Source of the DNA: an uncultured Bacteroidales bacterium
Lineage (GTDB): Bacteria > Bacteroidota > Bacteroidia > Bacteroidales > WCHB1-69
Assembly (NCBI GenBank): GCA_947167635.1
Contig: CAMVIT010000003.1
Span: 26,299-90,298 of the forward strand
Direction: 5' to 3'
DNA length: 64,000 bases
The notes below the pieces were generated by a model. That model saw nothing but the letters and a program-made list of their open reading frames with translations. It was not told the origin of the DNA and did not search any database. A program made the position numbers and the translations under genes. Shown here in pieces: positions 29,381-62,463 of this stretch (positions are counted from its first letter, which is position 1; each line of letters opens with the position of its first letter).

Positions 29381-29466
29381 AACAGTTGATCTGTTTTTCC
29401 CTTGCCTCTTCCTCCCCTCCGCAGCCACTTTTTTTCAGGCCCCGTTTTTTGAAAGATAAAAAAGAC

Positions 29467-29474
29467 TATTTTTG
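29467..29474 (+). promoter_or_regulatory. -7 box TATTTTTG upstream of the giant T9SS cargo gene
   Basis: 28 nt before ATG 29503. Supports the shorter start. Confidence 0.55.
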
Positions 29475-29502
29475 CACTTTGAAAACACGGACGCCTCGAC
29501 TT

Positions 29503-32500
29503 ATGTTAAAGTTTTTCATAAGGTTGTTTTGGGCATCATTCTTGTTTTTGATGTTGCCATGGACCATGCAGGGCCAAAGTTTCCCTTATGTCGTTTCCGT
29601 ACAGACTGTTCAGGGCCTTTGTTATGACGATTCCCACATCATTGTCACCCTGACAGACAATAGCGGACATGTGGTGCAAATAGACCCGGAGACCCACAAT
29701 GCCGTGGACATGAACTCCTATCCGCTAAGCAATGTCCAATACTACTACCAAAACGTCACGGCCGGGACAACGCTGCAGTACAGTTATAGCAATGACATCA
29801 TAGTGCCCGCCGGAACCTATCTCGTTGGGGTTGTGGCCAATATTCCAGGCGCAAACGGCGTGTGGACAAACGTCGATGTCCCGTATGGGAATGTCGCGGT
29901 GACCACCCAATACAATCATCTTGAAGCCATGGTGTTAGATTTGGCCAATGCAAATGACCTTGGTCATGAAAGATGCGGTATGCACCCATCTCTATCGTGT
30001 GTTGCCTGTGGTCGTATTCAGTTGAAACTCGTCAATGGTCGTTTCCCCTATCACGTGGTCATTCTTGACGAACAAAATGATACGGTTAGGGATGTCACAT
30101 ATTCTCAACGGGTACAATCAGGTTCTAACGCTTCTTATGCGGATTTCAGGGATTATTACACATTTGATAGCATGGCTGTTGGAAATTACACCATATTCAT
30201 TTCCGATGCTTGTAACTATTCGGTGAGGTTGTCTGCAATCATTCCCGATGTTTCACCATGGGGTTACGAATTTTATTTCAATCCCAACAAGAAATGCGAG
30301 GAGAGCGACAACATACTTTTTTTTGCATTTTCAGTGCGAAACTCTGGAACTACTGGAAGTCTCAAAAACTATATGCATCCTTATTTGAGCAATACGATGC
30401 AATATTGTTTCGTGCATTCGGGACAAGACACAACAGCATGGCGACAGATGCAATTTAATGATTCTTACGATGGAGGAGGATGGATATATATATATGACAC
30501 ACTTGAATCCGGCCTTCGGGTTTGTGAAATTATGGACGACACCCTTCAATTCCTTATCAAGGACATGTGTTTGGACAGCGTCTTCGTGACCAAATGGCAT
30601 ATTGTTTCTGGCTTTTTTTTAAAAGACTCCATGAGGATCGTACCTTATAATGGCATTGAAACTCCAGATACCTGCTCAATACACGTATCAAATGGCATAT
30701 CCACCCAATCTTATCTCTTTTATGGTAATATAAACAACTCCTCAGGTTGGAATGTTTCCTATAGCGACCGTGTCATAACTGTTGCTTCGCGATACTATGG
30801 CTGTCCCCTGTTTTTTAATGCTTGGTCCCTTCCCGATTCCACCCTCTTGGCCCATGGCGAGTCCAATGATTTCAATGGATTCGGCGTTCCGATAAGTATT
30901 GCAGCAGACACGACATTATCTGTACATATCGCCATCAGCGACGTACATGACTGTGTTTTAGCCGAATTTGACACCACGCTCACCTTCCAGACGTCACAAG
31001 CAGAAGATATCGACTATTGGTGGGAGTGCGGACATTATGATACTCCTAACAATTGGTTCGTTTGTTGCGAAAATCGCTATATGTGGCTGCAAGAACATTT
31101 AGTGGAGGCGGATTCTTTCCGTAGAAACATGACCCTGCATCTCATTGAAAGCCCGCTATATAATCGATTCAACTTCACGGCAGTACGGCAGGACGGTGTA
31201 TGGACCGTGAACAATGACGATCCGAACAACACCTCCACTTCCGTGGAATTCTCTTACGAGGACGGTTGGCGAGCCACCATCCGAGATGCCGAATGTCTCT
31301 CCCCGGGTCGCTATGTGTTTGAAATACACAACGATTGTGGTGACACCATAATTTCATACCAATGGAATGGGTATTATACGGATTCTACATTTTTAGTCTC
31401 CACGCCTCAATACAACGCTTATCAAGTGTGCGACCAATTCGTGATTCCAACAAACGATGTTTCTATTGTTCGGAACTACTACTATATCTATCCAGACATT
31501 GACAACAACGTACCACAAATACAAACAAGTCAACCTCGTTATTACTTTACAGTAAGGGGCCATTCCAATAATGTTTTTTTTTATGTAGAATCATACGAAC
31601 CGTATATAATCCTCTCTCAACCTGGAGTTTACAGCATAGACTTGACCACAAATGCAGGATCCGATTGCTCTCGATTATTTTATAGCGATACTGTCTCCTT
31701 TACACAGACTTTCCTCAAATTTGATTTTGCAAATGCTTATATTTGTGATGTCTCAAGTTCAACGGGAATGGTCTTGGCACAAGCCATCAACGGCAACAAA
31801 CCTTATACCTTCAATCTTTATGACCAATGGAACGCCACCGGCAATGTCATCGCCACCAGCGACACCGGGTTTTTCAACAACGTCCCCATGATGGCGGGGC
31901 AGCATCTGTCCGTATTGGTAACGGATTCCTGCAACAACAGTTTCTCGGTCAACCTTACAGCGTCCGCACTGACACAAGAGAACCTGATTATGTCAGTGGG
32001 AGACTCCATACATTGCGAAGGGGATACCCTGCACTTGGAGGCAAAACAGTTCCCGTTCCCGACAAGCTACCAGTGGACGGGACCCAACGGATTCAGCGAC
32101 ACATCACGGGTTATTGATGTCCATATCCCCTACGGCAGCGAAAGTGGCTGGTATAGGGTGGACATCACGAACAGCTTGTGCGGGAACACCCTTTCCGACA
32201 GCATTTACATTACGGTGACACCCGCCCCGAGAGTGACTATCTTGGGGGACACGATTGTTTGTCCTGACAGGCAGATCATATTGGATTTCATTCCACATGG
32301 TACAGGAACCGTCAACTTCGACATTCTGCATTCCGACAACAATCTCCGTACACATTACTCTGTAGCCGCCGGAGACACGGTGCAACAAAGCCTGCAGATT
32401 CTTTCCAATATCGTTTTTTGGGCCGACAGCATCTTCGATGAAGCCTGCGCCTATCACTCTTTCATCGACAGCTTCCCTGTCTTGATGAGGGTGTTGGACT

Positions 32501-35304
32501 ATAATCCCACCCATGTTTACGACACGGTCTTGGAAAACAATCTGCCTTTTGGCATCTACGATACTGTTTTTCAAAATGCAGGTACTTACGAAATCACACT
32601 TTCCGACCAATTCGGCTGTGACAGTGCGGTATTTGTTCACCTTACCGTCCTCTATAATGTCACCGCAGTGGATGACTCCGTCGTGTGTTTCAGCGCGTTG
32701 CCATTGACATGGAACAACACGGTGTTCCGTGCAGACATGATGGACACCCTTGCGGGTTCAAGTGTTCCCATCATAACACACCCCGGTGTGCTTACAGCCT
32801 CCAATGGGGTGGACAGCACCGTGACGATGATCCTGTACGTCAACCCGACCTATGCCGTCACCGATACTTCGACCATCTGCGCTGACGAACTCCCCTACAT
32901 CTGGAACGGGGTCACCTTCACGGAGGCGGGCACCCATAGCACCACCCTCCAGAGTGTCAGCGACTGCGACTCCATAATCGCGATGACGCTGGTGGTCAAG
33001 CCGCTCTATGCCGTCACCGACACCGCAGTCATCTGCGCTGACGAGCTCCCCTACACCTGGAACGGGGTCGCCTTCACGGAGGCGGGCACCCAAAGCGCCA
33101 CCCTCCCGACCGTCTATGGCTGCGACTCCGTGGTGGCCATGACGCTGCTTGTCAACCAGACCTACTCCGTCACGGACACCGCCGTCATCTGCGCTGACGA
33201 GCTCCCCTACACCTGGAATGGCGTCACCTTCACGGAGGCGGGCATCCAGAGCGTTACCCTCCAGAGTGTCAGCGGCTGCGACTCCGTGGTGGCGATGACG
33301 CTGCTTGTCAACCCGACCTACTCCGTCACTGACACCGCGACCGTCTGCGCTGACGAGCTCCCCTACACTTGGAACGGGGTCACCTTCACGGAGGCGGGCA
33401 CCCAATATGTCACTCTTCCGACCATTGACGACTGCGACTCCGTGGTGGCCATGACACTGCTTGTCAACCCGACCTACTCTGTTACGGATACCGCTGTCAT
33501 CTGCGCCAACGAACTCCCCCTCATTTGGAACGGCGTCACCTTCACGGGGGCGGGCACTCGGAGCGCCACCCTCCCGACCGTGGACGGCTGCGACTCCGTG
33601 GTGGCGATGACACTCGTCGTGCTGCCCATGCCCGAATTTTACGACACCCTGCATTTGGTCCAGAATCAAATGCCGTATCATTTTCTGCCTAACGACACGA
33701 TACTGACGTTGAGTTCGACATTCATACAGTTCCAATACAGCCATCCTGCCGAGGGCTGCGACTCCATCTTCCACCAGACGGTCTTCGTACACTTGAACAC
33801 GACACAGCAGGTGGACACTGTGGTCTGTGCCGCATCGTTGCCGACCTCCTGGCACGGACATCTCTTTACTGGGAACGCCTCCTTCACCGACACGCTGCAA
33901 ACAGTGTTCCAAAGCGACAGCGTCGTGATGTACTCACTCACCGTCACAAACATCTCCGCTGACATCGGCAACATTGTCCATGTTGTCTGTTTCGGCGACT
34001 CCACGGGCTCCGCGTCCGCCACTGTTTCGGGCGGCAACGCGCCGTTGACCCTGCGGTGGACCAACGCGGCGAACACCCCAGTCTCTTCGACCGCCAGCCT
34101 TGGCGGCCAGCCGGCGGGATTCTATACCTTCACTGTCACCGACAACCTTGGTTGCTCCGCCTCCGACACGGTCACCCTCCGGAACCTGCATGCCACGATG
34201 GCACCGGGTGCGGTCTCCGAAGACCAGGACCTCTGCGAAGGCAACACGCCGGATCCCTTCCTCGGAACCCCGGCCTCCGGAGGCGCAGACGGCCACTATC
34301 AATGGCAAATAAACCTCAACGGCACAGAGTGGGTCGCCGCGCCCGGCACAAACAACGCCCAAAACTACACCTATCCCGATTCCGTCACGGGTTCATTCTC
34401 CCTGAGACGTGCCTGGATCAGCGCGGCATGCGGCATCGTGTTCAGCAATACCGTGACCATCAACGTGTGGATGAACCATCACGACACGGTTGAGGCCAAC
34501 GTCTGCCAAGACGAACCATTCCAGGATTTCGGTTTTGACATCGGGGCCGACGAGACTGATGAGGTCGGATTGCAGACGTTCACACAGCGCCTGCCTTCCT
34601 CCCATTGCGACAGCACCCTTACCCTCCTACTGACTGTCAACCCCAAATACGAAGCCCTCATCGAAGAAAATGTTTGCGAAGGAGACGGTTATTTCTTGAA
34701 CGGTTTTTCAGTGAACCATCAGGAAACCATGGGTGTGGACGAACTGACGCGCGAACTCACCTTGCAGAGCGCGTCCGGATGCGACAGCATTGTCAGACTC
34801 CACTTGTCTGTCATCGACACCTCCCTGCACATTGAGAGTTCCACCGACGATTTTTGTGAAAGACTGTCTGCAGAACTGATGGCTGTCACGGAGATGACGG
34901 ATTACCTCTGGAACACTGGCGAGACATCGCAAGAGATTACCGTAACACAGCCCGGTCTCTACAGGGTGACCGCCTATCAGGGACAATGCAACAGGACGGC
35001 CTCCTACCATGTGGAGACCTGCCACACCGACCTGCACTTGCCCAATTCCATCACCCCCGTCCATAGCAGCGGCCTCAACGACTACTTCTCCATTCCCGAA
35101 ATGTTCCAGCAGTCCATCCGCCGTTTCGAAATCCGCATCTACGACCGTTGGGGCGAGCTTGTCTTCCATTCCACTGACAAGAATTTCAAGTGGAGAGGAG
35201 AGTGTAAGGGGCAAATCCAACACAACAGCATTTTCAACTACATCATCCTGTTTACAGACAAAATGGGGAATCACCAGGTGAAGGGCTCCCTCTTGGTACT
35301 ATAG
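29503..35304 (+). CDS. giant cell-surface protein with T9SS type-B (gliding-motility-associated) C-terminal domain, SprB-like and 52-aa tandem repeats
   Basis: The ORF track entry starts at 29386. I use ATG 29503 (MLKFFIRLFWASFLFLMLPWTMQGQ), 29 nt after a TATTTTTG box. C-terminus 'LPNSITPVHSSGLNDYFSIPE...IRIYDRWGELVFHS...FKWRGE..' is the type-B CTD pattern. 'VVCFGDSTGSASATVSGGNAPLTLRW' is SprB-repeat-like. Five 52-aa repeats 'NPTY.VTDT..ICADELPY.WNGVTFTEAGT...TL....GCDSVVAMTLLV'. Confidence 0.85.
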   Translation: MLKFFIRLFWASFLFLMLPWTMQGQSFPYVVSVQTVQGLCYDDSHIIVTLTDNSGHVVQIDPETHNAVDMNSYPLSNVQYYYQNVTAGTTLQYSYSNDIIVPAGTYLVGVVANIPGANGVWTNVDVPYGNVAVTTQYNHLEAMVLDLANANDLGHERCGMHPSLSCVACGRIQLKLVNGRFPYHVVILDEQNDTVRDVTYSQRVQSGSNASYADFRDYYTFDSMAVGNYTIFISDACNYSVRLSAIIPDVSPWGYEFYFNPNKKCEESDNILFFAFSVRNSGTTGSLKNYMHPYLSNTMQYCFVHSGQDTTAWRQMQFNDSYDGGGWIYIYDTLESGLRVCEIMDDTLQFLIKDMCLDSVFVTKWHIVSGFFLKDSMRIVPYNGIETPDTCSIHVSNGISTQSYLFYGNINNSSGWNVSYSDRVITVASRYYGCPLFFNAWSLPDSTLLAHGESNDFNGFGVPISIAADTTLSVHIAISDVHDCVLAEFDTTLTFQTSQAEDIDYWWECGHYDTPNNWFVCCENRYMWLQEHLVEADSFRRNMTLHLIESPLYNRFNFTAVRQDGVWTVNNDDPNNTSTSVEFSYEDGWRATIRDAECLSPGRYVFEIHNDCGDTIISYQWNGYYTDSTFLVSTPQYNAYQVCDQFVIPTNDVSIVRNYYYIYPDIDNNVPQIQTSQPRYYFTVRGHSNNVFFYVESYEPYIILSQPGVYSIDLTTNAGSDCSRLFYSDTVSFTQTFLKFDFANAYICDVSSSTGMVLAQAINGNKPYTFNLYDQWNATGNVIATSDTGFFNNVPMMAGQHLSVLVTDSCNNSFSVNLTASALTQENLIMSVGDSIHCEGDTLHLEAKQFPFPTSYQWTGPNGFSDTSRVIDVHIPYGSESGWYRVDITNSLCGNTLSDSIYITVTPAPRVTILGDTIVCPDRQIILDFIPHGTGTVNFDILHSDNNLRTHYSVAAGDTVQQSLQILSNIVFWADSIFDEACAYHSFIDSFPVLMRVLDYNPTHVYDTVLENNLPFGIYDTVFQNAGTYEITLSDQFGCDSAVFVHLTVLYNVTAVDDSVVCFSALPLTWNNTVFRADMMDTLAGSSVPIITHPGVLTASNGVDSTVTMILYVNPTYAVTDTSTICADELPYIWNGVTFTEAGTHSTTLQSVSDCDSIIAMTLVVKPLYAVTDTAVICADELPYTWNGVAFTEAGTQSATLPTVYGCDSVVAMTLLVNQTYSVTDTAVICADELPYTWNGVTFTEAGIQSVTLQSVSGCDSVVAMTLLVNPTYSVTDTATVCADELPYTWNGVTFTEAGTQYVTLPTIDDCDSVVAMTLLVNPTYSVTDTAVICANELPLIWNGVTFTGAGTRSATLPTVDGCDSVVAMTLVVLPMPEFYDTLHLVQNQMPYHFLPNDTILTLSSTFIQFQYSHPAEGCDSIFHQTVFVHLNTTQQVDTVVCAASLPTSWHGHLFTGNASFTDTLQTVFQSDSVVMYSLTVTNISADIGNIVHVVCFGDSTGSASATVSGGNAPLTLRWTNAANTPVSSTASLGGQPAGFYTFTVTDNLGCSASDTVTLRNLHATMAPGAVSEDQDLCEGNTPDPFLGTPASGGADGHYQWQINLNGTEWVAAPGTNNAQNYTYPDSVTGSFSLRRAWISAACGIVFSNTVTINVWMNHHDTVEANVCQDEPFQDFGFDIGADETDEVGLQTFTQRLPSSHCDSTLTLLLTVNPKYEALIEENVCEGDGYFLNGFSVNHQETMGVDELTRELTLQSASGCDSIVRLHLSVIDTSLHIESSTDDFCERLSAELMAVTEMTDYLWNTGETSQEITVTQPGLYRVTAYQGQCNRTASYHVETCHTDLHLPNSITPVHSSGLNDYFSIPEMFQQSIRRFEIRIYDRWGELVFHSTDKNFKWRGECKGQIQHNSIFNYIILFTDKMGNHQVKGSLLVL
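32839..33618 (+). repeat. intragenic tandem repeat, 5 x 156 bp (52 aa) inside the giant T9SS cargo gene
   Basis: Unit starts GTCAA(C/G)CC at 32839, 32995, 33151, 33307 and 33463, exactly 156 bp apart. High DNA identity between units. Diverged copies flank on both sides. Confidence 0.92.
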
Positions 35305-41682: not shown

Positions 41683-43368
41683 TTACCTCTTCACAAACTT
41701 AATAGATTTAGTCGCCCCATCATTGGATTTCAGACGAAGCAAATAAATCCCAGATGCCAAATCCGAGACATCAAACGTGAAAGTCTGATCGAGCATTTTC
41801 TCTGCCTTGATTACCTTTCCTGTCACATCCAGGATTGATATATCAAAATCAGAAGTTGCTGTACTAGTCAGATTCAGAGTGGTAGTAGCTGGATTCGGAT
41901 AAATAGAAATCTCATACTTCCAATCTGTCACAAGCGGATTTATTTCCACTTGGATAGGGAGAGATACTTCATCTTCACAAGATAGTCCCAAATCAGCACC
42001 AAATATTCCAGAGTACTTCAATACATGGTCCCCTACCGAAAGGCCATTGGTATAGACAGTGAAGACTGATGGAATACTCGATACCGACAATACATCATCG
42101 ATATACAGATCACCACCAGGCGGAGATACATAGATGACAAAAGTAGAATCAGTGAAAATTTGTGGAGTCTGGACAGTCATGGAGATATCCGGATTGTATA
42201 CTTCTACCCACACTGAGTCGTGTGTCACACAACCATGTTGGTCAGAGAAATCCACAGACACCCAGGTCGACATAGTCATAGGCGGAGTCAAATATTCTGC
42301 CACATATACCGAATCTGTCTCTATCCACGTAGAATAATTCACACTATCCTCCAAGTCTCCTACATGCCACAGATAGCTAGTCTCATACCCCATACTTTGT
42401 GCATGTAAAGTATCTACTCCTCCATAGCACACCCGAGAATTTGTAGCTGAAAGTGAGATAGAGTCTTCCACGTATTCATAAAGATAAGTAAAAATGCAAT
42501 TAGTTTCCATTCCCCATGCTTTACACCCCTTTGAGTCATACATGTATACACCATAGATATACCCACTATACGCCCCACAAATAAGCCTAGTTGTATCTTC
42601 CATAAAAACTTGACCAGTATCACTATAGTAAAACCAAGTAAAATTATATGGTGGTGTTCCGCCATAAATGCTAGTTGACAAACATCCAGGCTGACCAATA
42701 CATACAGTATCTGTGTAAAGTGAATCATAAATATCCACCCACGGTTCAGGTTGCTCTATGGTGACACTATCATGATACTCACAGCCATTAGTTCCATGTG
42801 CAGTGACATGGTAAGTCCCCGCTCTCAAACCAGTTAGAGTGACAGAATCATAAAACGTACGGCCATAGAAGAATGGTGTATCTACCTCTGCTTTTATCCA
42901 CTCATAATCCTGTACAGGATTATCCAAATCTACATGAAATGAACCATCCATATACGGATACAGATATCCATCAGGACATGTCACATGCTTGACCAAATTT
43001 GTGGGAATGGAGATAGTAGGCGGAACATGGATAGAAAAAGCGATAGCTTTCACAGCACTCAATTCTGCTCCATTCACAGAATCCACATAGCACATAATAG
43101 TAGTATCACTAGGAACATCGAATGTAACTACGATATACGGCTCCGTCGTATAATACCTCACCCCCTGACAGACATAGCTACAACTTGTCTGAAAATGTAA
43201 AGAAGGTGGTATCGGCGTACTAATCTCAGATCCAGCACATACAGATATAGTTAAACCATAAATAGTATCCCCCGAAAGTAATTGATTCGGAGTAGGAAGA
43301 GAACCATTCCTTGCGAATCCAGTTAGACTCACAAAGACAAAACACAAAAATAACAATACTTTTTTCAT
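41683..43368 (-). CDS. T9SS (type A CTD) secreted protein, unknown function, low GC
   Basis: 561 aa. Signal peptide MKKVLLFLCFVFVSLTGFA. C-terminus 'IYPNPATTTLNLT...GIYLLRLKSNDGATKSIKFVKR'. Two 60-nt lines I counted were 40-42% GC, against 57% for a metG line. Confidence 0.8.
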   Translation of the reverse strand: MKKVLLFLCFVFVSLTGFARNGSLPTPNQLLSGDTIYGLTISVCAGSEISTPIPPSLHFQTSCSYVCQGVRYYTTEPYIVVTFDVPSDTTIMCYVDSVNGAELSAVKAIAFSIHVPPTISIPTNLVKHVTCPDGYLYPYMDGSFHVDLDNPVQDYEWIKAEVDTPFFYGRTFYDSVTLTGLRAGTYHVTAHGTNGCEYHDSVTIEQPEPWVDIYDSLYTDTVCIGQPGCLSTSIYGGTPPYNFTWFYYSDTGQVFMEDTTRLICGAYSGYIYGVYMYDSKGCKAWGMETNCIFTYLYEYVEDSISLSATNSRVCYGGVDTLHAQSMGYETSYLWHVGDLEDSVNYSTWIETDSVYVAEYLTPPMTMSTWVSVDFSDQHGCVTHDSVWVEVYNPDISMTVQTPQIFTDSTFVIYVSPPGGDLYIDDVLSVSSIPSVFTVYTNGLSVGDHVLKYSGIFGADLGLSCEDEVSLPIQVEINPLVTDWKYEISIYPNPATTTLNLTSTATSDFDISILDVTGKVIKAEKMLDQTFTFDVSDLASGIYLLRLKSNDGATKSIKFVKR

Positions 43369-43415: not shown

Positions 43416-43455
43416 CAAAATATTCAGATATGCCCGTGTTTTATCATGTTTATTA

Positions 43456-43846
43456 ATGCCGACACCGTTTTTTCCCCGCACACCTACGGCGTGCGACAAC
43501 CCGAATCGCCGTCCGCATTCCTACCGAGCCCTTCAGCCCTAACGGGCTGTTTCGTGGCCGGAACGGTGTCCCGTTGATACGGTCGCGGTTGCGGTTGTTG
43601 GCAGGAGCGGTTTGGTGGGTTCGGAGGTATATACGCAAAAGGAACGGTTTCCCGAATCGGTTACGATTGCAAGTGGTGACAGGTTGGGTGGTTTGCCGGG
43701 TGTTATGCATAAACGCGGAAAGGGTGGTTGTCCGAATCTGTTACGGTCGCGGATGTTGGCAGGCCGTCAGGTCTGCCGGGCTTGGTAGCACAGGCGTGTA
43801 CGGGCGTGTTGTCGCAGGCCGTCAGGTCTGCGGGCAAAAACCGAAT
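43456..43846 (+). repeat. REP-like higher-order repeat, copy A
   Basis: Contains the X box plus hairpin (43521-43549), Z hairpin plus GGGCTTGGTAG (43758-43788) and W hairpin (43813-43831). Roughly 95% identical by eye to copy C, with a 6-bp indel. Confidence 0.9.
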
Positions 43847-43860
43847 ATAAAACACATCAA

Positions 43861-44319
43861 TCAAACATCTTCAAATATGTATCGTTCGTCAAATTCTATC
43901 TCGTTTTTTCTCAACATATCCAAATATTCCTCACGGAACGATCTCTTGGCATGGTGTTTTTCTTGATTCAAAATGTATTGCACAACTCTTGGCACATGAC
44001 TCTTTGAATATGAAAAAGCCCCATAACCCTCCTGCCATTGGAATTGGAATCTAGTAAGCCTTTCTTTGTTTATCCATTCTGAAGTTTCGCGTTTCAATCT
44101 TAACATCAAGGATGATAAAGATTGTGTTGGTCGAAAACCAAACAATAAATGCACGTGATTTGAAACGCCGCCAATCGCCAAGGTTTTGTGCCCTTGGTCA
44201 TTGACAATTGACGCCATGTAGCTATACAATCGTTCACTCCATTCTGGTGAAATTAATGCGTCTCTATTTCGTACGGCAAAAACGGTTTGAATGTGAATTT
44301 GGGTGTAAGTGTTGCTCAT
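43861..44319 (-). CDS. HUH/Y1 single-strand DNA transposase, IS200-like / REP-associated (RAYT-like)
   Basis: 152 aa. 'QIHIQTVFAVRNR', HUH motif 'NHVHLLF', catalytic-Tyr context 'WQEGYGAFSYS'. Size and motif order fit the Y1_Tnp family. Flanked on both sides by REP-like repeat arrays. Confidence 0.85.
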   Translation of the reverse strand: MSNTYTQIHIQTVFAVRNRDALISPEWSERLYSYMASIVNDQGHKTLAIGGVSNHVHLLFGFRPTQSLSSLMLRLKRETSEWINKERLTRFQFQWQEGYGAFSYSKSHVPRVVQYILNQEKHHAKRSFREEYLDMLRKNEIEFDERYIFEDV

Positions 44320-44354
44320 AATTTCATTGTTTTTTTAATAATTTTTTTGGGCGG

Positions 44355-44362
44355 CAAAAATA
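44355..44362 (-). promoter_or_regulatory. -7 box TATTTTTG upstream of the Y1 transposase gene
   Basis: Minus-strand TTATTTTTGCCGCC, 35 nt upstream of the ATG at 44319. The gene has its own promoter-like box. Confidence 0.55.
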
Positions 44363-44445
44363 AAAAATATCATAAAATATTGCGTATCAATATTTTAACA
44401 ATAAATTGTAAAAATAAAACACATTGTATTGACTCTCTTTTATTT

Positions 44446-45314
44446 ATGCCGACACCGTTTTTTCCCCGCACACCTACGGCGTGCGACAACCCGAATCGTC
44501 GTCCGCATTCCTACCGAGCCCTTCAGCCCTGACGGGCTGTTTCGCGTCCGGAACGGTGTCGCATAGTTGGGGTGCGGGTGTTGGTGGGTTCGCGTTTTGC
44601 CGGGTGTGGTGCATAAACGCGGAAAGGGTGGTTGTCCGAATCTGTTACGATTGCAAATGTTGACAGGTTGGGTGGTTTGCCGGGTGTTATGCATAAACGC
44701 GGAAAGGGTGGTTGTCCGAATCTGTCACGGTCGCGGATGTTGGCAGGCCGTTAGGTCTGCCGGGCTCGGTAGCACAGGCGGGTGCGGGTGTGTTTTCGCA
44801 GGCCGTCAGGCCTGCGGGCAAAAATCGAATCCCACACCGTTTTCCATAATGCCCGCACACCTACGGCATGCGCAAAAACCAAACCGCCGTCCGCATTCCT
44901 ACCGAGCCCTTCAGCCCTACGGGCTGTTTCGTGGCCGGAACGGTGTCCCGTTGATACGGTCGCGGGTGTTGGCAGGAGCGGTTTGGTGGGTTCGGAGGTA
45001 TATACGCAAAAGGAACGGTTTCCCGAATCGGTTACGATTGCAAGTGGTGACAGGTTGGGTGGTTTGCCGGGTGTTATGCATAAACGCGGAAAGGGTGGTT
45101 GTCCGAATCTGTCACGGTCGCGGATGTTGGCAGGCCGTTAGGTCTGCCGGGCTCGGTAGCACAGGCGGGTGCGGGTGTGTTTTCGCAGGCCGTCAGGCCT
45201 GCGGGCAAAAATCGAATCCCACACCGTTTTCCATAATGCCCGCACACCTACGGCATGCGCAAAAACCAAACCGCCGTCCGCATTCCTACCGAGCCCTTCA
45301 GCCCTAACGGGCTG
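44446..45314 (+). repeat. REP-like higher-order repeat, copies B (44446-44830), C (44831-45217) and partial D (45218-45314)
   Basis: Landmarks recur at exactly 387 bp (44742->45129, 44797->45184, 44899->45286). 44661-44926 is repeated at 45048-45314 with a single 1-nt indel. ~80-bp subunits are visible at 44579-44657 and 44658-44737. Confidence 0.92.
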
Positions 45315-45319
45315 GTTAA

Positions 45320-47212
45320 TCACCCCTCTTTTTCGGACAGTTCCATCCACCGTTCGGTCTTTTCGTCTAACAGCTGGTTGAGTTCATTGTAGCGCTTGCC
45401 CCACTCGGCGAAGTCTTCGGGCGTGCCTTGCCCTAAGGCCATTTTGCCCTCGATGTCACTTTTCTCCTTTTCCAAGTCTGAAATTTCTTGTTCCAACTGC
45501 TCTAATTCGCGTTGTTCTTTGTAGGAAAGTTTTTTCTTGGTTTCTTCTCTTTGCGGACGATTTTCCACAGCAGGGCGCAATGCCTTCTCGATTTTCTTCT
45601 GTATCCGCAACTCCTTGTCCTTGGCCTGCCGGTATTCGGTGTAGTTGCCGTAGTAGTCCTTGATTTTCCCGTCACCCTCGAACACGAAGATGTGATCGAC
45701 CAGCTTGTTCATGAGCCACCGGTCGTGGGAGACGATGATGAGGCAGCCGCCGAAATTGAGCAGGAAGTCCTCCAATAGGTTCAGCGTGTCGATGTCGAAG
45801 TCGTTGGTCGGCTCGTCAAGGATGAGGAAATTAGGATTTTTTAACAGGGTAATGAGCAGGTGGAGCTTGCGTTTCTCGCCGCCGCTGAGGTCCTCGTAGT
45901 AGGTGTACTGCTGGCTGAAGGGGAATCCGAAGTGGTTGAGGAACTGCGAGGCGCTGATATAGTTGCCGTTGTCCATGCGGATGACCTCGGCGTGTTCCTT
46001 GACGAGTTCGAGGACGATTTTGTTGCCGGCATAGATCATGCCATCCTGCGAAAAATAACCGAACTTGATGGTGAGTCCCGGGGTGATTTTGCCTCCGTCG
46101 GGGCGCACCTCGCCCATGATCATCTTGAGAAAGGTGCTTTTGCCGGTGCCGTTTTTGCCCACGATGCCGCACTTCTCGCCTCTTTTGAAGATGTAGGAAA
46201 AGTCCTTGATGATGGTCTGGTCGGGATAGGAAAAGTCGAGATGGCTGATCTCCAGTATTTTGTGTCCAATACGCTCTGACTGCACCTTGAACGCTTCGGG
46301 GGCTTGTTCCACTTTGCGGTCCATCTGCTCCTGCAGCTTCTCGAACTGGTTGATGCGGGCGCGCGCCTTGGAGGTGCGGGCCTGTGGGGAGGTGTGTACC
46401 CACTCGAGCTCGCGGCGGTAGAGATTGCGCAGGCGGTCGTGCTCGGCAGCCTCGTTGGCGAGGCGTTCGGCCTTTTTCTCGACAAAATAGTCGTACTTGC
46501 CGCGATAATGGTACAGCGAGCCGTTGCTCAGCTCGAAGATATCGCTGCAGACACGGTCGAGAAAGGAACGGTCGTGGGTCACCATCAGAAGGGTGATGTT
46601 GGCGGAGGAGAGGTAGTTCTCTAACCACTCGATCATCTCGACATCCAGATGGTTGGTGGGCTCGTCAAGGATGAGCAGGTCGGTGTCGGCAATGAGTGTC
46701 TTGGCGAGGGCGGCCTTCTTGCGCTGCCCGCCGGAGAGCTGGTTGACGTTCTTGAAGATGTCGTGGATGCCGAACTTGGAGAGTATCTCCTTGATGCGGG
46801 CTTCGTAGTCCCAGGCGTTGAGGCGGTCGATTTCGAGGATGGCGTTGTCCATCCGCTCCTGGGGCACCTTGTCGGTCATTCCCTGTTCGAGGAGTGTGAC
46901 GCAGCTTTCGTACTCCTTGATGGCGCGCACCACGGGAGTCTCCTCGTCAAAGAGGGCGTTCAGCACCGAGTCGTCGCCGTTGAAGCTGTCCATCTGGGGC
47001 AAATAGGAGACGACAATGTCGTTGCGGATGACGACCTCGCCCTCGTCGGGCACTTCGCGTCCGGCAATAATGTTGAGGAGCGTGCTCTTGCCCGTGCCAT
47101 TGCGGGCGATGAGCGCACTCTTCTGTCCCTTTTCCAACCCGAAGGTGATGTTACGGAACAGGAGCTTCTCCCCAACCGTTTTGGAGAGATTGTTGACGGC
47201 GAGATAGTTCAT
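45320..47212 (-). CDS. ABC-F family ATPase (tandem ABC domains, no TM domain, C-terminal coiled coil)
   Basis: 630 aa. Two Walker A motifs ('ARNGTGKST', 'GKNGTGKST'), two signatures ('LSGGQRKK', 'LSGGEKRK'), two 'LILDEPTN' motifs, and a K/E-rich C-terminal tail. Confidence 0.92.
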   Translation of the reverse strand: MNYLAVNNLSKTVGEKLLFRNITFGLEKGQKSALIARNGTGKSTLLNIIAGREVPDEGEVVIRNDIVVSYLPQMDSFNGDDSVLNALFDEETPVVRAIKEYESCVTLLEQGMTDKVPQERMDNAILEIDRLNAWDYEARIKEILSKFGIHDIFKNVNQLSGGQRKKAALAKTLIADTDLLILDEPTNHLDVEMIEWLENYLSSANITLLMVTHDRSFLDRVCSDIFELSNGSLYHYRGKYDYFVEKKAERLANEAAEHDRLRNLYRRELEWVHTSPQARTSKARARINQFEKLQEQMDRKVEQAPEAFKVQSERIGHKILEISHLDFSYPDQTIIKDFSYIFKRGEKCGIVGKNGTGKSTFLKMIMGEVRPDGGKITPGLTIKFGYFSQDGMIYAGNKIVLELVKEHAEVIRMDNGNYISASQFLNHFGFPFSQQYTYYEDLSGGEKRKLHLLITLLKNPNFLILDEPTNDFDIDTLNLLEDFLLNFGGCLIIVSHDRWLMNKLVDHIFVFEGDGKIKDYYGNYTEYRQAKDKELRIQKKIEKALRPAVENRPQREETKKKLSYKEQRELEQLEQEISDLEKEKSDIEGKMALGQGTPEDFAEWGKRYNELNQLLDEKTERWMELSEKEG

Positions 47213-61236: not shown

Positions 61237-62331
61237 ATGAAAAAGATTTTGAAATACATCGTTTTCGCCTTGATTGCCATTGTTTTTATCGGCACGTTCA
61301 TGTTTCTTTTCAAAAAGTCGAAGCCTGAAAAGGAGATGTTCGAGGAAATCGAGGTGGTAACCCGGACCATTGAGCGCACGTCGTTGATTACGGGCAAAAT
61401 CGGGCCGCGAGACGAAGTGGCCGTCAAGCCGCAGATCAACGGTATCATCTCCGAACTCTACAAGGAGGCGGGACAGGAGGTGAAGGCGAATGACGTCATC
61501 GCGAAGCTGAAAGTCATCCCCGACATGGGGCAGCTCAGCGCGGCGCAGAGCCGTCTGCGCCTGGCCGAGATCAACCTCAAGCAGGTCAAGACCAACTACG
61601 AGCGCGAGAAGGGGCTGCACGACCAGCATCTCATCAGCGACGAAGAGTACGAGAATGCGTTGCAGCTTTACAACCAGGCGCGTGAGGAGCGCAGTGCCGC
61701 CCAAGAGGCATTGGAAGTGGTGCGCGACGGTGTTTCCTCCTCCAACTCCAAATCCTCTTCCACGCTGGTTCGCGCCACCATCTCCGGTCTTATCCTCGAC
61801 GTGCCCGTCAAGGTGGGCAACTCCGTCATCCAGGCCAACACCTTCAACGACGGCACCACCGTGGCCACCATCGCCAACATGAACGACCTCATCTTCACGG
61901 GCAAGGTGGACGAAACCTCCGTGGGAAGCCTGAAAGAGGGCATGCCTGTGACCATCACCATCGGGGCGTTGCAGGACTACACCTTTGACGCCACCCTCGA
62001 ATATGTCGCGCCCAAAGCCGTGGAAAGCAACGGCGCCAACCAGTTCGAGATTCGTGCGGCAGTGAAGGCCTCCGACGACAAGACCATCCGCTCCGGCTAC
62101 AGCGCGAACGCCCGCATTGTGCTGCAACGCGTCGAGGATGTGCTTTCTGTCCCCGAAAGCGCCTTGGAGTACGAGGGCGACGACACCTTCGTCTATGTTA
62201 AAAGCGGCGAGAATGGCAACTATGAACGCCGCAAGGTGACCACCGGCCTCAGCGACGGCCTCAACATTGAAATCAAAGAGGGCCTCAAAAAAGGCGAGAA
62301 GGTGAGAGGAAACAAGATTATGAACTATTAA
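61237..62331 (+). CDS. efflux periplasmic adaptor subunit (HlyD/MacA-type membrane fusion protein)
   Basis: 364 aa. N-terminal TM, lipoyl-like and coiled-coil hairpin ('AAQSRLRLAEINLKQVKTNYEREKGL'), and a beta-barrel domain. Confidence 0.88.
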   Translation: MKKILKYIVFALIAIVFIGTFMFLFKKSKPEKEMFEEIEVVTRTIERTSLITGKIGPRDEVAVKPQINGIISELYKEAGQEVKANDVIAKLKVIPDMGQLSAAQSRLRLAEINLKQVKTNYEREKGLHDQHLISDEEYENALQLYNQAREERSAAQEALEVVRDGVSSSNSKSSSTLVRATISGLILDVPVKVGNSVIQANTFNDGTTVATIANMNDLIFTGKVDETSVGSLKEGMPVTITIGALQDYTFDATLEYVAPKAVESNGANQFEIRAAVKASDDKTIRSGYSANARIVLQRVEDVLSVPESALEYEGDDTFVYVKSGENGNYERRKVTTGLSDGLNIEIKEGLKKGEKVRGNKIMNY

Positions 62332-62463
62332 ATTATTAAATCATTAAATTATGAAAATATGATTTGCGGTAGTTCATCACAATCCCATAATTTAATATCT
62401 TAAAATCTTAATATCTAATAATTTAATAGTTTAATAACTTAATAACTTAATAATAAAAAGGTT

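Follow-up and report, generated by a model that had tools for sequence, protein, structure and literature searches.

A candidate REPtron-like locus in Bacteroidales: a Y1 transposase gene set in an array of double-hairpin modules

The subject of this study is a repeat array of ~1.9 kb that surrounds the gene of a HUH/Y1 transposase in the genome of an uncultured Bacteroidales bacterium (GenBank assembly GCA_947167635.1, contig CAMVIT010000003.1, positions 26,299 to 90,298). The whole 64,000-nucleotide stretch that was analysed is referred to as the window. The array lies between a gene for a protein with a type IX secretion system (T9SS) tail (41683-43368, minus strand) and an ABC-F gene (45320-47212, minus strand). 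An earlier interpretation, here called the sequence-only reading, had compared the locus with repetitive extragenic palindromic sequences (REPs), the bacterial interspersed mosaic elements (BIMEs) and the tyrosine transposases associated with REPs (RAYTs). The present analysis indicates that the unit of the array is a double-hairpin module of ~80 nt, designated M, and that inverted copies of M bracket the Y1 gene in the window and its homologues in other lineages.

Module M and the architecture of the array

Module M, which was delimited by blastn coverage of the 387-bp repeat unit and by iterated nhmmer searches, consists of hairpin 1, 2 nt, GGGCTCGGTAG, ~24 variable nt and hairpin 2. Hairpin 1 is CAGSCCGTTAGGSCTG with the top CCGTTAGG, and hairpin 2 is CGCASGCCGT(T)AGGYSTGCG. 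The GGTAG motif is invariant; ~9 nt separate it from hairpin 1 on its 5' side and ~24 nt from hairpin 2 on its 3' side. The sequence-only reading had taken a 29-nt REP-like core as the repeated unit and a third hairpin variant as a separate element; the mobile unit is instead the ~80-nt double hairpin, and the third variant is hairpin 2 of M. The core does occur in both orientations, as had been noticed, with forward and reverse forms that are 83-86% complementary over 29 nt, and within the 64-kb window it is found in the array only, with a chance expectation of 0. A covariance model likewise detected exactly seven M modules in the window, all in the array. The features of the array are as follows.

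43449..45317: whole array, ~1.9 kb, made up of the Y1 gene, 7 intact M modules and linkers of decayed M copies
43472..43549 (-): M module in copy A, adjoining the T9SS-tail promoter region (nhmmer; covariance model, 53.8 bits)
43581..43740 (+): linker of two decayed ~80-bp M derivatives at 78-80 bp spacing, hairpins and GGTAG gone (equivalent subunits align to M)
43759..43838 (+): M module adjoining the Y1 stop codon on its 3' side, opposite in orientation to the M upstream of Y1 (nhmmer; covariance model, 53.1 bits)
43861..44319 (minus): HUH/Y1 transposase gene, 152 aa (open reading frame, Pfam, NCBIfam, structure model)
44355..44362 (minus): TATTTTTG box at 36-43 nt upstream of the Y1 ATG, which fits the TAnnTTTG -7 box of Bacteroidetes
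44462..44539 (-): M module upstream of Y1, oriented as the gene (nhmmer; covariance model, 51.8 bits)
44559..44720 (+): two decayed ~80-bp M derivatives without hairpin 2 and GGTAG (Tandem Repeats Finder, period 80; alignment to M)
44743..44926 (+): doublet resembling the REPINs (REP doublets forming hairpins), M(+) 44743-44822, 27-nt spacer, M(-) 44850-44926 (nhmmer; covariance model)
44950..45107 (+): two decayed ~80-bp M derivatives (alignment to M)
45130..45314 (+): REPIN-like doublet, M(+) 45130-45209, 27-nt spacer, M(-) 45237-45314, stopping 6 nt short of the ABC-F stop codon (nhmmer; covariance model)

The nested 387-bp and ~80-bp periods that had been read by eye were recovered by Tandem Repeats Finder and by a repeat search. 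The former assigned a period of 387 bp to 44465-45314 (2.2 copies, 91% matches) and one of 80 bp to 44596-44764, and the latter gave spacings of 984/990 bp and 387 bp for copy A versus copies B/C and a 25-nt block present eight times at 78-80 bp. The array with the 387-bp period lies on both sides of the Y1 gene, and within it M(+) and M(-) alternate with two types of linker, of 27 nt and ~204 nt. The ~204-nt stretches, each running from an M(-) to the next M(+), are the 80-bp subunits. Aligned to extended M, these subunits correspond to its first 80 nt, with 49/71 to 53/78 identical positions, the two values obtained for 44559..44720, of which the second is well above shuffles; three of the four subunits scored above every shuffle, and all have lost both hairpins and GGTAG. 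The 387-bp unit therefore combines an M(+)/27-nt/M(-) doublet with a linker formed by two decayed M copies, and the possibility that the 80-bp subunits form an independent repeat family was rejected based on the same alignment. A CRISPR-like array was also rejected, since unique spacers are lacking and the orientation of the repeats alternates.

The repetition of 44661-44926 at 45048-45314 with a single 1-nt indel was confirmed (266/267 identical). Copies A and C, which had been judged ~95% alike, are 91.9% identical by measurement, and A and B are 87.8% identical. As single-stranded DNA, the doublet region 45125-45318 folds into one long hairpin (-61.8 kcal/mol, z -8.6). The segment holding Y1 (43847-44445) has a GC content of 33.9%, compared with 59% for the array and 52% for the window.

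Covariation points to selection on the hairpin structure of M. In 108 distinct copies from the rumen clade, the hairpins are paired in 97.4% of the cells, 8/15 pairs show compensatory double changes, and none of 500 shuffles was as good; RNAalifold independently predicted the same two helices. Across lineages, 56 diverse modules are paired in 93.2% of the cells, with compensatory changes in 11/14 pairs. G.T pairs are frequent (48 and 82 sequences for two pairs), and the GGTAG-carrying strand therefore folds better than its complement (-22.9 vs -19.0 kcal/mol). No Rfam family matched. A known RNA family was rejected because all matches were sub-threshold; they were miRNA-precursor-like only and are explained by the long doublet hairpin. 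Intrinsic terminators were rejected as well (0 found vs 3.6 expected).

The Y1 protein

The open reading frame at 43861-44319 on the minus strand was confirmed as the gene of a 152-aa Y1 transposase by its match to Pfam Y1_Tnp (PF01797; E 2.9e-24, 85.9 bits vs a cutoff of 23). The HUH motif had been placed correctly in NHVHLL, which begins at residue 54, and corresponds to H55-V-H57. The catalytic tyrosine had been sought in WQEGYGAFSY; it is instead assigned to Y115 in VVQYILNQEKHH (YILNQEKHH), because this residue aligns to 'QYIENQ' of ISDra2 TnpA. Both HuH and Y115 are invariant in 47 homologues, and further motifs are WQ at 95-96 and the invariant F128/E131/L136. A profile of the 47 homologues matched ISDra2 TnpA (7.8e-11) and IS608 TnpA (7e-06) in the PDB, and did not match the E. 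coli RAYT structure 4ER8. The AlphaFold model, with a predicted local distance difference test score (pLDDT) of 89.8, matched ISDra2/IS608 TnpA structures (2XMA, 2VIH, 2EC2) at E ~1e-7; 4ER8 was found at E 1.2e-5, rank 30 by fold.

Differences between the gene and its relatives are concentrated at third codon positions (1st/2nd/3rd, 20/10/76 vs locus L023 and 33/20/87 vs L059), which suggests purifying selection on the protein. The TATTTTTG box that had been described upstream of the gene is present at 44355-44362 on the minus strand as a putative Y1 promoter, and a repeat at this box is common to the promoter region of the T9SS-tail gene. A 28%-identical subclass-1.2-type paralogue (149 aa, DHLH, YIAKQKEHH) was found in bin RGIG9679 (L027, 3122-3571, minus strand), where it adjoins a 1424-aa helicase-like open reading frame; the covariance model detected no M flanks at this paralogue.

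Distribution of M and its association with Y1 genes

Scanning with GTYAGGKCTGNNGGGCTYGGTAG, one genome per species, gave 68 loci, and every one of them belongs to a genome bin of rumen Bacteroidales (~27 bins). Absence of the core from the rest of the genome and from relatives, which the sequence-only reading had named as a point that would count against it, was not observed. Exact core matches occur at 1-6 loci per bin. Iterated nhmmer searches found 137 M matches in the window and the 68 exact-core loci, which were covered as 8-kb stretches around the exact matches. The Y1 gene is present at only 5/68 of the loci, so most M copies are away from the gene. These copies are mostly intergenic singlets or hairpin-forming doublets, including doublets with ~27-nt spacers (L015, L032, L044, L047, L053, L058), and short tandem runs also occur. 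At least 95/120 M copies are outside any open reading frame of >=120 aa, and in the window the overlapping copies fall in a spurious one created by the array itself. The orientation of M relative to flanking co-directional genes showed no significant bias (33 vs 23). Bin RGIG9679 probably represents the window's own species, as judged from contig L053 (96% DNA identity to the window, with an ABC-F 99% identical), and it carries M at five other loci. Some M sites are orthologous and conserved in several species, e.g., L038, L043, and L050. The sequence-only reading had regarded several identical copies of the gene as the mark of an ordinary insertion sequence (IS); never more than one locus carrying the gene was found per sampled genome, these being genome bins.

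The identical protein is indexed in 64 assembly-collection blocks, and every contig with this protein that is long enough to show the neighbours has the order ABC-F, Y1, T9SS-tail. The M counts at this locus differ between assemblies with the identical protein: the window has five upstream of Y1 and two downstream, L001 two and two, L008 three and at least six, and L009 carries two tandem Y1 genes 988 bp apart. In other species the orthologous ABC-F|T9SS spacer holds one M (L074, L013, L021), two (L011) or at least three (L031), and no Y1 gene is present in the complete spacers L074, L013, and L011. In bin RUG083, Y1 is found elsewhere on the same scaffold (L063) and the orthologous spacer holds a lone M (L074). 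The DNA of Y1 is 98.7% identical to the window in L063 and 99.1% in L033 (bin RGIG6923), and the neighbouring ABC-F and T9SS-tail genes are only 77-79% identical in those species, a comparison subject to misassembly through shared repeats. The spacer variation, this discrepancy in identity and the low GC content of the gene segment point to recent exchange of Y1 between species, possibly via recombination at M copies, and suggest that the gene was not simply inherited vertically.

The T9SS-tail (Por_Secre_tail) gene beside the array encodes a fast-evolving surface protein. It has a GC content of ~41%, is 62-72% identical where ABC-F is 80% identical, and its gene calls vary from 458 to 590 aa between assemblies (L001-L009).

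The arrangement of M(+), Y1 and M(-) was found in the window and in L063, L033, L023, L059, L078, and L080. It extends to a gene with 69% identity (L078/L079) and to one with 60% identity found in a termite-gut metagenome (L080), where the stems are quite different and the CCGT(T)AGG tops and GGTAG are kept. A metagenome scan with protein alignment gave 80 loci with Y1 54-88% identical to the query. In these metagenomic loci, GGTAG clusters 60-90 nt upstream of Y1 and CTACC 50-60 nt downstream, and 255 modules were identified by a covariance model over 405 kb. In nhmmer searches, M(+) was placed within 260 nt upstream of Y1 in 57/74 loci and M(-) within 200 nt downstream in 63/75, and both flanking modules are present in 48 of the 69 evaluable loci. 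Nearly all modules (232/235) are within 1.5 kb of Y1, with only three in the ~200 kb beyond. Based on these two counts, the association of gene and module is conserved and the repeats are overwhelmingly local. Near-identical metagenomic Y1 pairs always have the same immediate downstream flank.

A bracket of M universal to subclass 1.2, the group of Y1 transposases to which the protein is compared below, was rejected because of the L027 paralogue and a Bernardetia replicon, both without M. In the latter (Bernardetia sp. plasmid NZ_CP147018.1; L161, 19700-20000), the region upstream of Y1 is built differently: after GGTAG comes a long perfect palindrome, AAGTTGCAGAGCAACGTAATAT ... ATATTACGTTGCTCTGCAACTT, and the GTTGCNNNGCAAC motif occurs twice more. 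This structure may be a distinct cognate element of another subclade. Phage or plasmid carriers were also rejected: homologues of Y1 had no matches in phages, and the only plasmid-type carriers were two large chromid-like Cytophagia replicons with genes 39-47% identical.

Other forms of the locus were noticed among the homologues. Head-to-tail M arrays that repeat every ~116-140 nt and reach up to about 10 copies lie beside the gene in L088 (3386-4852), L082 (215-1416), L125 (65-2177), and L028 (1492-1802), whereas the array in the window alternates in orientation. A profile search gave 756 clusters (50% identity) at E <= 1e-30, with flanks mostly unsampled. Proteins of ~290 aa with two tandem subclass-1.2 Y1 domains make up about one-sixth of the best 150 cluster representatives (P0121, P0122, P0127 and some 25 more); HuH and Y-x3-Q-x2-HH are present in each domain. 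These proteins may be single-chain 'dimers', and the tandem duplication in L009 could be a precursor state of them.

Comparison with known systems and interpretation

The REP/RAYT systems, known mainly in Proteobacteria, provide the foremost case of a prokaryotic transposase that has been domesticated and lives with non-autonomous repeats of its own. The REPtron, reportedly described by Nunvar in 2010, Bertels and Rainey in 2011 and Ton-Hoang in 2012, is said to be a TnpA-REP/RAYT gene flanked by REP or BIME sequences in E. coli and Pseudomonas. REPtrons, BIMEs, REPINs and TIRtrons are thus already known (PMC3733652, PMC6006769). Like a REPtron, the locus in the window has a single-copy Y1 HUH gene between inverted GTAG-tagged palindromic elements, and this element is scattered through intergenic DNA in the form of singlets and REPIN-like inverted doublets. 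Its clusters of alternating orientation with two linker types resemble BIMEs, and the doublet in the window folds into one long hairpin as REPINs do, with doublets also dispersed. The locus differs from a REPtron in its protein, which appears to belong to class 1 (IS200-like), subclass 1.2, and not to class 2; in the concentration of the copies at the gene, with few elsewhere; in the signs of recent interspecies transfer of the gene; and in its host phylum, Bacteroidota. The unit is also unlike REP, being a double hairpin of ~80 nt whose two hairpins enclose GGTAG, and exact-core matches at 1-6 loci per bin contrast with the 20-40 nt palindromes of REP/BIME at >100 copies per genome. The comparison with REP/BIME-RAYT systems made by the sequence-only reading therefore stands for the inverted GTAG-tagged hairpin flanks, the intergenic dispersal and the BIME-like array, and fails for the protein family. 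GTAG repeats were reported from Proteobacteria, Cyanobacteria, Chloroflexi and the PVC (Planctomycetes, Verrucomicrobia, Chlamydiae) group, and not from Bacteroidetes (Di Nocera et al., 2013). In the TIRtrons and TIRYTs, a Y1 gene also lies between long inverted repeats, some of them double palindromes, of moderately abundant families that occur as dimers or clusters (Di Nocera et al., 2013); the TIRYT proteins are RAYT-like (class 2.1) and GTAG is missing from the repeats around them, unlike the GGTAG repeats and the IS200-like protein here.

Subclass 1.2 was defined by Y-x3-Q-x2-HH, WQ, a length of about 148 aa and a specific C-terminal tail, at low copy number in Cyanobacteria or Bacteroidetes hosts, and its REP status was given as 'no' (Quentin et al., 2018, BMC Genomics 19:475, PMC6006769). 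Its members were regarded in 2018 as IS200-like in sequence and not IS-like in behaviour, with no DNA partner or function known (PMC6006769). The protein in the window fits this subclass in its WQ and Y-x3-Q-x2-HH motifs, length of about 150 aa, conserved C-terminal tail, Bacteroidetes host, low copy number and divergent paralogue (28% identical, in RGIG9679). It departs from the subclass as described in that its HuH motif is NHVH and not DH[IV]H, and in that a large clade has a conserved flanking double-hairpin module. The IS200/IS605 elements (IS608, ISDra2) and the palindrome-associated transposable elements (PATEs) are the closest relatives in sequence and fold; they share hairpins beside a short conserved motif, a compact IS200-sized unit and short non-autonomous forms with hairpin ends only, which are like miniature inverted-repeat transposable elements (MITEs). 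They differ in having distinct same-strand left and right ends, where the flanks here are inverted copies of one module, and the sampled bins and loci hold neither multi-copy near-identical elements nor tnpB.

Our preferred reading, which we consider probable though far from secure, is that of a REPtron/BIME-like locus in which an IS200-related Y1 enzyme copies its cognate module M mostly in cis and recombination or slippage remodels the array. Judging from the homologous IS608/ISDra2 TnpA and from TnpA-REP of E. coli, the enzyme would bind M hairpins in single-stranded DNA on the GGTAG-carrying strand and would nick and rejoin near GGTAG using Y115 and the H55/H57 metal site. M units would thereby be copied or moved, mostly in cis. 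Recombination or slippage between units would expand or contract the array, and the same process might relocate Y1 between M-bearing sites.

Several observations weigh against this reading. The protein failed the RAYT model of NCBIfam (REP_Tyr_transpos, NF047646; 26.6 bits vs a cutoff of 80) and has Y-x3-Q-x2-HH in place of the class-2 motif Y-x3-NP; for these reasons it is not a canonical RAYT or a class 2 member. The NCBIfam IS200 model (NF033573) was passed marginally (59.2 bits vs 55). By sequence, the protein is closer to autonomous IS200 transposases. GGTAG is away from the hairpin foot, whereas canonical REPs have a GT[AG]G tetranucleotide at the 5' foot of the hairpin. The dispersal of M is sparse, and the covariance model found no copy in the other 62 kb of the window. 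A closed Bernardetia replicon with a 47%-identical Y1 has no M flanks by the same model. The gene is ~99% identical across species with ~78% backbones, at different sites, and its segment has 34% GC vs 52% in the surroundings; its behaviour in this respect is closer to that of a mobile element than to that of a domesticated gene. Misassembly of repeat arrays can occur when metagenomes are assembled from short reads. Finally, we infer binding, cleavage and the cleavage site alike from related enzymes.

The main alternative is an autonomous low-copy IS200-like IS of about 650-990 bp whose ends are inverted double-hairpin modules (M-Y1-inverted M), with solo M copies and doublets as solo ends and MITE-like deletion derivatives, and with an array produced by nested or tandem insertion and unequal crossing-over. 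The passed IS200 cutoff, ISDra2/IS608 TnpA as the closest relatives, the tight bracketing of the reading frame by modules in most lineages as an IS200-sized unit, the 98.7-99.1% DNA identity of the gene between species whose flanking genes are ~77-79% identical, the different site in RUG083 (L063) with a lone M in its orthologous spacer (L074), the 34% vs 52% GC, the tandem duplicate in L009 and the short-spacer doublet, which equals the unit minus the gene, all agree with such an IS. On the other hand, no sampled genome has more than one locus with the gene, the metagenomic loci show no near-identical copies in different contexts, and the orthologues are divergent. The inverted-repeat ends are unlike the asymmetric same-strand ends of IS200/IS605, plasmid or phage carriers are lacking save for two chromid-like replicons, and subclass 1.2 itself has been reported at low copy number, with 1.7 copies per genome that are 36% identical to each other (PMC6006769). 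We think this explanation rather unlikely.

It is improbable that the array chiefly serves the host in a structural or regulatory role (mRNA-end stabilizer, terminator, nucleoid-protein or gyrase platform), with Y1 as an incidental passenger. M is intergenic and kept at orthologous sites (L038, L043, L050), the array lies between one gene end and two promoters, and E. coli REPs have such roles (PMC6006769). The pairing of gene and module is, however, conserved in 48/69 diverse loci, with covarying stems and GGTAG kept, which an incidental landing cannot explain; moreover, 232/235 matches are close to Y1, terminator-like sites are fewer than expected (0 vs 3.6), no Rfam family matches and the orientation bias (33 vs 23) is not significant. 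That the array, its variants and the cross-species near-identity are assembly artefacts of mixed rumen metagenomes is most improbable. Many M loci and Y1 homologues are indeed at contig ends or on ~1-kb contigs, and array structures vary between assemblies. The order M, Y1, inverted M nevertheless recurs across independent studies, biomes and assemblers, misassembly cannot produce covariation across lineages, and the repeat statistics of the window are far beyond chance.

A broader proposal than the REPtron/BIME-like reading of this locus, which is offered tentatively, is that a large clade of subclass 1.2 might be a separate lineage of repeat-forming, largely single-copy transposases with their own GGTAG double-hairpin substrate and hypervariable cis arrays. 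If true, this lineage would be an evolutionary intermediate between autonomous IS200 and domesticated RAYT/REP systems, possibly the missing link from autonomous IS200 elements to REPtrons. In the literature searched, the coverage of which was incomplete, a cognate repeat of subclass 1.2, a double-hairpin module with internal GGTAG and a strongly local array all appear to be undescribed. For subclass 1.2, M provides a concrete and conserved candidate substrate (double hairpin, CCGT(T)AGG tops, GGTAG box) with a predicted functional strand and natural compensatory-stem variants, and binding and cleavage specificity are therefore directly testable. In practical terms, the arrays break short-read assemblies of rumen and gut Bacteroidales, and their variable copy number could make them strain-typing markers.

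Two other repeats were observed in the window. A tandem repeat of 156/312 bp (32839-33611; 5 or 2.5 copies, 82-83% matches) is located in a 1972-aa open reading frame (29386-35304, plus strand) whose product is probably a repeat-domain surface protein. AT-rich tandem repeats with periods of 8 nt (ATAACTTA-like) and 31 nt occur at 62326-62454, just upstream of an ATG at ~62465.

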